Below are positions 5,806 through 61,689 of a stretch of 64,000 nucleotides of DNA, piece by piece. The position numbers and the translations under genes were made by a program. Under the pieces are notes generated by a model. That model did not search any database, was not told the DNA's origin, and saw only the letters and a program-made list of their open reading frames with translations. Source of the DNA: a virus (lineage: Duplodnaviria > Heunggongvirae > Uroviricota > Caudoviricetes); the IMG/VR virus record IMGVR_UViG_2718218172_000010; one strand, written 5' to 3'. Positions within the stretch are counted from its first letter, which is position 1. Every line of letters begins with the position of its first letter.

Positions 5806-6552
5806 ATGAAAAATATTGCGACAGGCGGCGTTCTGGAACGTATCCGCAGACTGGCCCCGCCACATGTAACCGCGCCATTCAGGACGGTGGCGGAGTGGCG
5901 CGAGTGGCAACTTGCAGAAGGCCAGAAACGTTGTGAGGAGATCAACCGTCAGAATCGTCAGTTGCGGGTGGAAAAAATCCTGAATCGTTCCGGCATCCAG
6001 CCGTTGCACCGCAAATGCTCGTTTGCGAATTACCAGGTGCAGAACGACGGCCAGCGATACGCGTTGAGCCAGGCGAAATCCATCGCCGATGAACTGATGA
6101 CCGGATGCACAAATTTCGCATTCAGCGGAAAACCTGGTACCGGGAAAAACCACTTAGCGGCGGCTATCGGAAATCGCCTGCTGAAAGATGGCCAGACAGT
6201 GATTGTGGTTACCGTGGCTGATGTTATGAGTGCTCTACACGCCAGCTATGACGACGGGCAATCAGGCGAAAAATTTTTGCGGGAACTGTGCGAAGTGGAT
6301 CTGCTGGTTCTTGATGAAATTGGCATTCAGCGCGAGACGAAAAACGAGCAGGTGGTACTGCACCAGATTGTTGATCGCCGGACAGCGTCGATGCGCAGCG
6401 TGGGAATGCTGACAAACCTAAACTATGAGGCCATGAAAACGCTGCTCGGCGAGCGGATTATGGATCGCATGACCATGAACGGCGGGCGCTGGGTGAATTT
6501 TAACTGGGAGAGCTGGCGCCCGAATGTTGGTCAGCCAGGTATTGAAAAGTAA
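5806..6552 (+). CDS. DnaC-like helicase loader (AAA+)
   Basis: Walker [18 protein letters not shown] and Walker B LLVLDEIG; 248 aa. Confidence 0.8.
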
Positions 6553-9043: not shown

Positions 9044-9589
9044 ATGACTTTTACCGAAAAAGAAATGATTAAAGAAATCAAAGAGCGCATAGGCAGCCTG
9101 GACGTGCGAGACAATATTGAGCGCCGGGCTTATGAAATTGCTCTGGCATCGCTGGAAGCAGAGCCGGTGCTTTATATGAATCGATTTACCGGAAAGACAT
9201 TCTCACTGGAAGGGCAACCAGGAGCAGACAAGGAACCGGAAATATACGTGCCGCTATACGCTGCTCCGCCAGCGCCGGTAGTGCCGGAATTTGAAACATG
9301 GTTTAACAGCCAGGAGTCAGGGAGGAGTATATGCAGCACACAGATTCGTCGCTCCCTTCAGGAAATCTCATGGAACGCCTGCTGCGCCGCCATGCTTCAG
9401 GGGAAAGGCGATGGTATCCTCACCAATGAGGATACCAAAGGGGACGTTCAGGTACGGGAATTAACAATGCTGATTAAACAACTGGCTAGCCAATTGAGGA
9501 AAGTGAAGCCGAACTGCAAATTACCGGATAAGGCGATGAGTTATCTGGAGCGGAACGGACTGATAAGCGTGGAGGATATTTTACGATGA
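9044..9589 (+). CDS. hypothetical phage protein
   Basis: ATG at 9044 after AAGGA; 181 aa. Confidence 0.5.
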   Translation: MTFTEKEMIKEIKERIGSLDVRDNIERRAYEIALASLEAEPVLYMNRFTGKTFSLEGQPGADKEPEIYVPLYAAPPAPVVPEFETWFNSQESGRSICSTQIRRSLQEISWNACCAAMLQGKGDGILTNEDTKGDVQVRELTMLIKQLASQLRKVKPNCKLPDKAMSYLERNGLISVEDILR

Positions 9590-9669
9590 CCTGGCCTGAA
9601 GCATTCACAACGGTAGGAATTGCGATGGCGGTGGCGCTGGTGGTGTATTCGATTTGCCGATGGGGATAA
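9586..9669 (+). CDS. 27-aa hydrophobic peptide
   Basis: ATG overlapping upstream stop, GGAGGA SD; MTWPEAFTTVGIAMAVALVVYSICRWG. Confidence 0.3.
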   Translation: MTWPEAFTTVGIAMAVALVVYSICRWG

Positions 9670-9880
9670 AAACGGTTTGCGGGAAAAGGAGAGTTAAGTA
9701 GAATTGCTGCGGGTGCTTGAGGCTATCTGCCTCAGGCATGAACACCAAAAGGCAGATAGAGAAAAGCCCCAGTTAACATTACGCGTCCTGCAAGACGCTT
9801 AACATTAATCTGAGGCCCAATCTATGTCTCACAAATGTAGGTTAGCCTCTTACGTGCCGAAAGGCAAGGAGAAGCAGGCT

Positions 9881-10036
9881 ATGAAGCAGCAAAAGGCGAT
9901 GTTAATCGCCCTGATCGTCATCTGTTTAACCGTCATAGTGACGGCACTGGTAACGAGGAAAGACCTCTGCGAGGTACGAATCCGAACCGGCCAGACGGAG
10001 GTCGCTGTCTTCACAGCTTACGAACCTGAGGAGTAA
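9881..10036 (+). CDS. hokD: Hok-family type I toxin (HokD/RelF-like, 51 aa), with overlapping mok-like frame from 9824
   Basis: MKQQKAMLIALIVICLTVIVTALVTRKDLCEVRIRTGQTEVAVFTAYEPEE; upstream fold-back elements resemble the plasmid hok locus at 61123-61422. Confidence 0.75.
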   Translation: MKQQKAMLIALIVICLTVIVTALVTRKDLCEVRIRTGQTEVAVFTAYEPEE

Positions 10037-10104
10037 GAGACCCGGCGGGGGAGAAATCCCTCGCCACCTCTGATGTGTCAGGCATCCTCAACGCACCCGC
10101 ACTT

Positions 10105-10136
10105 AACCCGCTTCGGCGGGTTTTTTGTTTTTTTTC
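10105..10136 (+). terminator. rho-independent terminator
   Basis: CCCGCTTCGGCGGG hairpin followed by T-run. Confidence 0.5.
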
Positions 10137-10316
10137 AGTGAGTTTGTTCCGTCTGCCTGTACTGGTGTGGGGGGGGCTAATTTTGTTATTCAGGTGGCTT
10201 ATTGCTGTTGATCGGTATGTCTTCACGGCTAGAATCGAGGCTCTTAAGTAGCGCGCAGGGATAAGAGGGATGGACCCTGAGAAGGGGAGAGCTATTTATC
10301 TGGAAGGATTCTGAAG

Positions 10317-35044: not shown

Positions 35045-35380
35045 AGTAACCTCTTTTGGCTTTTTTCGAATTGCCACTAACGTAGTGGCGCCGGGAGGTT
35101 CGAAACGGCCCAAAAGATACCGCGGACTTATTCCCCTTTCGGGTGTTGTATTCGTCGCCCTCCCGACATTGATCGGGGTTGTGATCGCACATATTGCCAT
35201 CACAAAAAAAGGCATAAAAAAACCAACACATTGTAGGGTGCTGGGTAATCAGCTTTTGGGGGAGGTTTCGACGCCTCATGCGTCCAATCATACTCAACTG
35301 GGCGCGGTTGTAAAGTATGAACTTGAACAGACATTAAGAATGGGTAAAATTTGTCCTCCTGTTTTATAAGGAGATTAAGG

Positions 35381-39089: not shown

Positions 39090-39189
39090 NNNNNNNNNNN
39101 NNNNNNNNNNNNNNNNNNNNNNNNNNNNNNNNNNNNNNNNNNNNNNNNNNNNNNNNNNNNNNNNNNNNNNNNNNNNNNNNNNNNNNNNN
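39090..39189. other. assembly gap (100 N)
   Basis: Exactly 100 consecutive N. Confidence 0.95.
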
Positions 39190-56189: not shown

Positions 56190-56289
56190 NNNNNNNNNNN
56201 NNNNNNNNNNNNNNNNNNNNNNNNNNNNNNNNNNNNNNNNNNNNNNNNNNNNNNNNNNNNNNNNNNNNNNNNNNNNNNNNNNNNNNNNN
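56190..56289. other. assembly gap (100 N)
   Basis: Exactly 100 consecutive N. Confidence 0.95.
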
Positions 56290-60989: not shown

Positions 60990-61263
60990 TGCGGCAACAA
61001 TCATACAGATTACCCGTAAACAGCCTGAATGAGCGGGTTATTTTCAGGAAAAGTGAGTGTGGTCAGCGTGCAGGGATATGGGCTATGATGTGCCCGGCGC
61101 TTGAGGCTTTCTGCCTCATGACGTGAAGGTGGTTTGTTGCCGTGTTGTGTGGCAGAAGGACAAAAGCCCCGTAGTTAATTTTTCATTAACCCACGAGGCC
61201 CCTGCATGCTTAGACAACATCAGGATAGCCTCTTACCGCGCTTTGCGCAAGGAGAAGAAGGCC

Positions 61264-61422
61264 ATGAAACTACCACGCAGCTCTCTTGTCTGGTGTGTGT
61301 TGATCGTGTGTCTCACACTGTTGATATTCACTTATCTGACACGAAAATCGCTGTGCGAGATTCGTTACAGAGACGGATACAGGGAGGTGGCGGCTTTCAT
61401 GGCTTACGAATCCGGTAAGTAG
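61264..61422 (+). CDS. hok: Hok toxin (52 aa) with overlapping mok-like frame from 61123
   Basis: [52 protein letters not shown]. Confidence 0.85.
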
Positions 61423-61431
61423 CAACCTGGA

Positions 61432-61453
61432 GGCGGGCGCAGGCCCGCCTTTT
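61432..61453 (+). terminator. rho-independent terminator
   Basis: GGCGGGC-GCAG-GCCCGCC hairpin plus T-run. Confidence 0.5.
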
Positions 61454-61689
61454 CAGGGCTGATGCTGGTCTGACTGCACTGAAGCGCCTTTATAAAGGGG
61501 CTGCTGGTTCGCCGGTAGCCCCTTTCTCCTTGCTGGCATTGTACGGGCATGAACAACCAGACTGCCAGGAAGGCCGTTTCCCTCCGGGAACGGGGATGAA
61601 CGTGCGCATGCGGCGCCCGTTCTTTTCCCCCGCCTTCTCTGTTTATGACCTGTCAGAAATCACATCACCTTCCCTTTGATTATTTTCTT

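Follow-up and report, generated by a model that had tools for sequence, protein, structure and literature searches.

A complete hok/sok-family type I toxin-antitoxin module in a Rac-like prophage of Escherichia coli and a separate, conserved 27-codon gene upstream of it

The closest described relatives of the locus considered here are the hokW, mokW and sokW genes of the Stx2 phages 933W and Sp5 (VT2-Sakai). Takada et al. demonstrated that the HokW protein of Sp5 is toxic and that the 71-nt sokW RNA counteracts it, partly via RNase III and Hfq (PMC8621323). They also found that sokW vanishes after mitomycin C, that HokW production after mitomycin C needs RecA, that HokW is seen about an hour ahead of the endolysin, and that phage release is halved without hokW-sokW (PMC8621323). 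The 933W/Sp5 locus is an experimentally shown type I toxin-antitoxin (TA) system that aids phage release (PMC8621323). In addition, toxicity of HokD and a roughly four-fold enrichment of hok genes in prophages have been reported in a survey (bioRxiv 10.1101/2025.08.07.668861). Here we analysed a locus of this family in a stretch of viral DNA of 64,000 nucleotides (Caudoviricetes; IMG/VR record IMGVR_UViG_2718218172_000010), the whole of which is called the window below. We conclude with high confidence that positions 9677-10137 form a complete hok/sok-family type I TA module of the hokD/hokW lineage, situated between the replication genes and the Q-like gene of a Rac-like lambdoid prophage, and that a 27-amino-acid open reading frame (ORF) just upstream is a separate gene for a conserved membrane microprotein. 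A first-pass annotation, made from the DNA letters without database searches, had named a hokD-type locus with a mok frame, fold-back elements and a presumed Sok RNA in a nin-like region, and this assignment was supported by every test that we ran at the sequence level.

Comparison with 933W revealed the same architecture in the two loci from the promoter through the fbi element, with DNA identities of 90.5% overall and 94% in the leader, and 92% identity between the Hok proteins. As in 933W, where mokW is in frame with hokW and sokW is 71 nt long, the mok frame of the window is in frame with hok and the putative antisense RNA has a length of 71 nt. The same 27-amino-acid ORF is also present in 933W, where it is unannotated and lies directly upstream of hokW with an ATGA overlap on the preceding gene. 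However, the toxin of the window is a HokD allele, unlike that of 933W, and on the 3' side of fbi the two sequences, with their terminators, are unrelated. The positions of the two copies also differ: the 933W copy follows anti-repressor and Ea22-like genes and adjoins the gene for a very large LPD5-domain protein, whereas the window copy follows the replication genes at the nin-like site of a Rac-like prophage. The location between replication and Q genes that had been proposed on the first reading was borne out, as a DnaC/IstB-like replication gene (5806-6552) precedes the hok locus and a DUF1133 gene (11436-11978), which scores just above the Phage_antitermQ cut-off and is only weakly Q-like, follows it. 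The hok locus has the same orientation as the early operon. Window positions 1-39089 match the chromosome of the pig isolate E. coli cq9 (NZ_CP031546.1) without any difference, and the prophage in this chromosome is Rac-like and lambdoid (recET, ydaS/T/U/V etc.) and is inserted next to uspF/ompN. DNA similar to the hok region is present in 4744 of the 5426 complete E. coli genomes.

The toxin gene hok occupies 9881-10036 on the plus strand, encodes 51 amino acids and is preceded by a GGAG Shine-Dalgarno sequence at 9868-9871. Its product covers the whole of the Pfam model HOK_GEF (PF01848; E 1.2e-23, 82.9 bits against a cut-off of 22) and matches phrog_251, described as 'MokW-like host killing', at 2.8e-33. 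PGAP/RefSeq names the identical copy of cq9 'type I toxin-antitoxin system toxin HokD' (WP_000813254.1). A mok-type frame of 70 amino acids (9824-10036, plus strand) has a GAGG Shine-Dalgarno sequence at 9812-9815, 8 nt before its ATG. This ATG precedes that of hok by 57 nt in the same frame, and the mok frame is an N-terminally extended Hok; the exact 70-amino-acid sequence occurs in public records, in which it is labelled Hok family toxin, HokC/D or regulatory protein. The 51-amino-acid Hok and the overlapping mok-like frame of the first-pass annotation were thus recovered where they had been placed. We also observed that the codon for Tyr47 of hok, read together with the next nucleotide (10019-10022), is TAC followed by G, i.e. 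a TACG motif. A-to-I editing by TadA has been reported to recode Tyr to Cys in hokB and to act similarly on hokC, hokD and hokE (introduction of bioRxiv 10.1101/2025.08.07.668861).

The inferred hok promoter lies at 9677-9704 on the plus strand and consists of a -35 box TTGCGG (9677-9682), a 16-nt spacer and a -10 box TAGAAT (9699-9704). It is identical in 933W, and in other lineages TATAAT or TAGAAT stands equally far from GGGTGC. Transcription would start near G9711 on the same strand, and the start of the leader match, the terminator, the predicted fold and the conserved structure point to a full-length hok mRNA of about 420 nt at 9711-10137 (plus strand). The Rfam model RF01794 (sok) matches 9711-9886 on the plus strand with 121.7 bits (E 3e-27, gathering score 59) and is covered over positions 1-157 of its 157. 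Because this model was built in the orientation of the hok mRNA and ends at the hok AUG, it is effectively a model of the hok leader. The minimum free energy (MFE) fold of 9711-10130 (420 nt) has a dG of -173.4 kcal/mol, with a z-score of -6.9 against shuffled sequences. In this fold, the first 12 nt of the transcript, the tac element GGGUGCUUGAGG (9711-9722, plus strand), pair with the fbi element CCUCAACGCACCC (10086-10098, plus strand), which is the closure that defines the inert full-length hok mRNA. The fold-back elements upstream of the toxin that had been noticed on the first reading are therefore confirmed by both the RF01794 match and the tac-fbi helix. An intrinsic terminator, formed by AACCCGCTTCGGCGGGTT and a T-run, follows at 10105-10137 (plus strand), with its hairpin at 10105-10122.

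The tac-fbi pairing is also conserved in evolution. It is kept in 38 distinct combinations of tac and fbi sequences from Escherichia, Kluyvera, Photorhabdus, Pantoea and Erwinia, among which compensatory swaps such as GGGUGC/GCACCC to GGGCGC/GCGCCC (U-A to C-G) were found. In an alignment of 25 sequences, pair 4-414 of the tac-fbi helix is U-A in 13 sequences and C-G in 8. When the predicted structure was laid on this alignment, 83.3% of the cells were paired, compared with 39-46% when the partners were slid by 1-3 columns, and 41 pairs were changed on both sides, compared with 13-24 in the slid controls.

A putative Sok-like antisense RNA of 71 nt was located on the minus strand, running from 9832 to 9762, at the position of the annotated sokW of 933W. 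Its predicted fold comprises a single-stranded 5' tail of 14 nt, a long hairpin and a UUUU end (dG -29.2, z-score -5.3). The putative Sok promoter (9839-9867, minus strand) has a -35 box TTGCCT (reverse complement of 9862-9867), a 17-nt spacer and a -10 box TAACCT (reverse complement of 9839-9844), and it sets the +1 position at 9832, which is the 5' end annotated for sokW in 933W. The locus has, as judged from its sequence, a predicted antisense Sok RNA with its own promoter, 5' tail and terminator hairpin that is complementary to the mok initiation region.

The comparison with K-12 bears on whether such a locus is likely to be active. The 51-amino-acid toxin of the window is the protein that RefSeq names HokD (WP_000813254.1), the name of the hokD (relF) toxin in the K-12 prophage Qin. 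In K-12-type hokD copies, however, the relE coding sequence lies directly upstream, and tac and the 5' leader are missing. In contrast to these copies, the window copy has a complete leader, a Sok promoter and the tac-fbi pairing, and ea-type genes and the 27-amino-acid ORF lie upstream of it; it is neither placed directly downstream of relBE nor cut off in its leader, as the Qin copy is. The window copy is complete and probably active, unlike the truncated hokD of K-12. The alternative is that it is a decayed, inactive relic without TA activity, like the chromosomal hok loci of K-12, and truncated copies do occur in a sample of 93 related loci with Hok proteins at least 90% identical: three of the 93 are relE-linked and lack tac, and four more lack tac. 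Both promoters of the window locus are, moreover, weak matches to the consensus. However, none of the elements of the window locus is broken or out of register, the toxin has its full length and a RefSeq HokD accession, and the identity to the experimentally active hokW-sokW is 94% in the regulatory region. The full leader is retained in 86 of the 93 close relatives, which argues for selection. Taken together, these observations make the relic explanation very unlikely.

If this complete hok/sok module works as others of its family do, a weak constitutive promoter would produce a stable hok mRNA of about 420 nt that is kept translationally inert by the tac-fbi pairing. Slow trimming of the 3' end would remove fbi, whereupon the leader would refold and expose the mok ribosome-binding site and the Sok target. 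The unstable 71-nt Sok-like RNA would then pair at the mok initiation region and block the translation of mok, and hence that of hok, with cleavage by RNase III. Once Sok was lost, mok and then hok would be translated, and Hok would depolarise or damage the inner membrane. For a prophage, induction would be the likely trigger. We infer that read-through from the early operon after induction could raise the amount of target RNA and also hinder the Sok promoter, with which it would converge. Such a trigger is possible because the locus has the orientation of the early operon and no terminator was found between 9400 and 9710, in a scan that covered 9400-10400 and not the whole upstream operon. 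Hok would aid lysis and phage release, and it may also stabilise the prophage.

Several points weigh against this account of a complete and working module. First, a strict sigma-70 consensus scan of 9400-10400 returned neither the hok promoter nor the Sok promoter, as both fell below the threshold, and the two promoters were therefore placed by homology. Second, the activity of this copy is a prediction, and an intact sequence is no proof of activity, because Pedersen and Gerdes (1999) reportedly found all of the chromosomal hok loci of K-12 to be inactivated. Third, the trigger by read-through and promoter interference is our own suggestion. Finally, the role of the locus may be that of a lysis helper, a prophage stabiliser or a phage exclusion system, all of which are left as candidates.

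The window contains a second hok locus, at 61095-61490 on the plus strand, which lies next to psiA in an F-type plasmid leading region on another contig; its hok gene (61264-61422) encodes 52 amino acids and its mok frame spans 61206-61418. This locus also matches RF01794 (61095-61266, 92.6 bits). The hok/sok locus of plasmid R1 and the F-type locus share with the prophage locus the boxes GCUUGAGGCU.UCUGCCUCA, UAGCCUCUUAC and GCAAGGAGAAG, and the plasmid and prophage loci are alike in having the tac-fbi closure and a Hok protein of about 50 amino acids. However, the Hok proteins of the plasmid and prophage loci in the window are only 42% identical and their leaders 55%, and the plasmid mok is in the +1 frame with 58 nt between the two ATGs, whereas the prophage mok is in frame at 57 nt. 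The proposed resemblance between the fold-back sequences of two loci of different lineages agrees with the shared Rfam match and with these identities. RefSeq begins the Hok of the identical cq9 plasmid at an internal codon (41 amino acids) and marks the mok of this plasmid (DUF5431) as a partial pseudogene, whereas the window carries the full 52-amino-acid hok and a mok of 70 codons.

That both loci occur in one window is true of the record as it stands but fails as a statement of physical linkage. The window consists of three joined contigs, separated by runs of exactly 100 N at 39090-39189 and 56190-56289, and its three pieces are the Rac-like prophage, a chromosomal island with genes for a dGTPase, an H-NS-like protein, YfjI and IS66, and a leading/tra region of an F-type plasmid. 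The closed genome of cq9 has these pieces at three separate places: the island is 1.9 Mb from the prophage, and the third piece is found on a 221-kb F-type plasmid, as its leading region (ssb-psiB-psiA-hok). In this strain, which is 100% identical, the first hok locus is chromosomal and the second is on the 221-kb plasmid. The N spacers and the three separate map positions in cq9 show that there is no physical linkage between the two hok loci. That both might be borne by a phage-plasmid or an integrated plasmid was considered and is ruled out by the same spacers and mapping.

The second subject of our analysis is the hydrophobic peptide encoded just upstream of the hok locus. Its gene (9586-9669, plus strand) encodes the 27-amino-acid sequence MTWPEAFTTVGIAMAVALVVYSICRWG and overlaps the TGA of the upstream gene by ATGA. 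A Shine-Dalgarno sequence, GGAGGA, is present on the plus strand at 9571-9576, 9 nt before the ATG and inside the 3' end of the upstream gene. The latter is an early gene of 181 amino acids from its PGAP start (9044-9589, plus strand; WP_064986938.1), whose TGA overlaps the start of the 27-amino-acid ORF; its product matches PHROG 660 (7e-49, function unknown) and has no Pfam match. The 27-amino-acid gene closes the preceding array of ea-type early genes and would be translated either from its own Shine-Dalgarno sequence or by termination-reinitiation at ATGA.

Several lines of evidence indicate that this ORF is a gene in its own right. Among the loci that we fetched, 38 intact DNA variants of the ORF were found, in which 14, 10 and 23 sites vary at the first, second and third codon positions, respectively. 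Comparison of diverged versions with the commonest allele gave dN/dS values of 0.09-0.44, with a proportion of synonymous differences (pS) of up to 0.70 and a proportion of nonsynonymous differences (pN) of no more than 0.25; one allele differs from the same reference by 8 synonymous changes and no nonsynonymous change. Only a few alleles contain a stop or a frameshift. In the first seven variants that were aligned, M1, W3, P4, E5, A6, G11, M14, A15, V20, Y21, C24, R25 and W26 are invariant, and rarer variants that were found later vary at W3, E5, M14, A15 and C24. In addition, the ORF retains its ATGA overlap and a GGAGG sequence at a distance of 9-10 nt after no fewer than three unrelated ends of upstream genes, which read ...GGAGGATATTTTACG, ...CAGGAGGTGAATCA (after DUF551 proteins ending in PEPPQEVNQ) and ...GAGCAGGAGGTGAATCG, each running into ATGA.

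It might be argued that the ORF is not independent, but arose by chance or extends the upstream protein at its C-terminus in the -1 frame, reached by frameshifting at ATGA or left over from a frameshift mutation. The ORF does lie in the -1 frame with respect to the upstream gene, with whose stop it overlaps, PGAP makes no call of it in cq9, and some public fragments of 27 to 31 amino acids are labelled DUF551 domain-containing protein. However, the strong purifying selection on the 27 codons, seen in the pS and pN values and the 38 intact variants, is difficult to reconcile with a chance ORF, and so is its own GGAGG at a distance of 9-10 nt behind at least three unrelated upstream genes. No slippery heptamer was seen in the two commonest junctions, which were read by eye, and the rare stop or frameshift alleles resemble ordinary pseudogenes. 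The idea of a fused or frameshifted product that includes the peptide was dropped because the DUF551 proteins that we retrieved lack the peptide and end in ...PEPPQEVNQ, at the very stop that the ORF overlaps. We consider it extremely unlikely that the ORF lacks independence. On the evidence of its sequence variation, the 27-amino-acid ORF is a real, conserved and largely unannotated phage microprotein gene under purifying selection, and it is predicted to be translated. We also observed that protein clusters at 90% identity mix 27-amino-acid sequences with DUF551 proteins of 121 and 185 amino acids that lack the peptide; this mixing, together with the DUF551 names of the short fragments, looks like an artefact of clustering or of name transfer from the overlapping neighbour.

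Homologs of the 27-amino-acid peptide are widely distributed. They are found in 93 phage records, including 933W, VT2-Sakai, Stx2 II, BP-4795, ArgO145 and lytic Vequintavirinae, and in 181 plasmid records, which are mostly of non-mobilizable E. coli and Salmonella plasmids, several of the listed matches being about 92-96 kb in size. They also occur in 1341 of the 5426 complete E. coli genomes, where nearly all are chromosomal. No annotation of the ORF is given in RefSeq cq9 or in the records of 933W, VT1-Sakai, ArgO145 and vB_EcoM_TH18, and a few GenBank records name its product 'bacteriophage protein' or 'hypothetical protein'. Searches of Pfam, NCBIfam and PHROG gave nothing above threshold and a search of PDB gave no sequence match; the only match, to KdpF, was below threshold (E 0.024, 14.7 bits against a cut-off of 26.85). 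The peptide sequence is also absent from the searchable full texts of the literature and from the supplements of Hücker et al. 2017 and 'The Cryptic Bacterial Microproteome'.

The first-pass annotation was right in placing a translationally coupled hydrophobic peptide of 27 amino acids just upstream of hok, but the implied coupling to hok, or membership of the hok locus, did not hold, as the coupling is to the preceding gene. Because the end of the ORF lies 7 nt before the -35 box of hok, the ORF is outside the hok mRNA. We examined 84 loci that were found through the peptide itself and observed that hok lies downstream in 54 of them, 188-1336 nt away and most commonly at 209-211 nt, and that in 26 of them hok is absent from at least the next 1 kb, terminator-like hairpins often following the stop instead. 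Among the 93 loci with a closely related Hok, only 25 have the ORF upstream. The ORF also occurs without an adjoining intact hok in a lytic phage of the Vequintavirinae (where EaA and ea22 genes flank it), in VT1-Sakai (before xis) and in ArgO145.

These counts also bear on the possibility that the peptide is a functional part or partner of the hok locus, whether as a leader peptide, a second toxin or a membrane modulator of Hok. Such a role would fit with the 54 of 84 peptide loci that have a downstream hok, with the fact that the hok promoter begins right after the peptide stop at the commonest spacing, with the same arrangement in 933W, and with the observation that the peptide and Hok are both small membrane peptides. 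A hok 3' remnant after the peptide gene in ArgO145 suggests, in addition, that the adjacency was once commoner. However, the ORF is upstream of the hok promoter, its distance from hok varies between 188 and 1336 nt, and it is frequently found without hok, as hok is found without it; a lytic Vequintavirinae phage and VT1-Sakai carry it with no hok gene, and its conserved coupling is to the preceding gene. We consider a functional partnership with hok quite unlikely. The 27-amino-acid ORF and hok are frequent neighbours that end an array of ea-type early genes, and they are not one unit. With regard to ArgO145 (KY914478.1), the apparent hok 3' remnant (...GCCTACGAATCCGCCAGTAAGAG...GGGGGCGG) is located at about 2085-2200, downstream of the ORF, and adjoins a type II TA pair on the opposite strand, which suggests that hok has been replaced in this phage.

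The sequence of the peptide suggests a single transmembrane helix followed by a short basic C-terminus. In size, single hydrophobic helix and basic C-terminus, it presumably resembles small inner-membrane proteins of the KdpF, MgtS and AcrZ type. However, no sequence relationship to these proteins was found, and the 27-amino-acid ORF differs from them in being phage-borne and in always overlapping the stop of an ea-type gene. Tentatively, and with slightly less than even confidence, we propose that the ORF represents an unrecognised, widespread phage family of single-pass membrane microproteins, encoded at the end of ea-type genes with an ATGA overlap, usually missed by annotation and having a membrane-directed function of their own. 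Such a family would extend over lambdoid and Stx prophages, large non-mobilizable plasmids, which may be phage-plasmids, and lytic Vequintavirinae.

Other features were noted in the neighbourhood of the hok locus and elsewhere in the window. Just past the hok terminator, an ORF of 57 amino acids (10317-10490, plus strand) matches PHROG 340 at 1e-18; its RefSeq annotation, as a truncated pseudogene, is confined to the first 78 nt. A promoter-like sequence, TTGATC and TAGAAT with a spacing of 16, is present at 10208-10235. Directly downstream of the Q-like DUF1133 gene, at the position that the Stx genes occupy in Stx phages, lies a gene pair for a pertussis-like AB5 toxin (12366-13091 and 13159-13584, plus strand). 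The A subunit has Pertussis_S1 (4e-15) and Scabin-like matches, whereas the match of the second gene to Pertussis_S2S3 is only sub-threshold (19.8 bits, with a cut-off of 27); this gene carries the annotation of a subtilase-family AB5 binding subunit. Among the prophage head genes, 19218-20654 (plus strand) is annotated by RefSeq as 'anti-CBASS protein Acb1 family protein', and in the tail-gene region the Rfam model sRNA-Xcc1 (RF02221) matches 35082-35167 on the minus strand with 72.5 bits against a gathering score of 53. In the public databases, E. coli-type hokD with 96-100% identity was also found on very short contigs labelled Acinetobacter idrijaensis, Xanthomonas pisi and Candidatus Scatousia (the last a metagenome-assembled genome), one of which also carries the 27-amino-acid ORF; the hokD genes on these contigs are probably assembly contamination.

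As far as the toxin is concerned, the hok part of this locus is already known, since hokD/hokW-type prophage loci are routinely annotated, have been experimentally characterised and are found in the majority of E. coli genomes. That two hok lineages occur together in the window should not be taken to mean that they are physically linked. The sole mildly new item is the conserved and mostly unannotated 27-codon gene, which is independent of hok. Given its frequent position beside hok, its microprotein may tune membrane integrity or the timing of lysis. As it is present in about a quarter of the complete E. coli genomes and in reference Stx phages, this gene would be a cheap target for small-protein studies.

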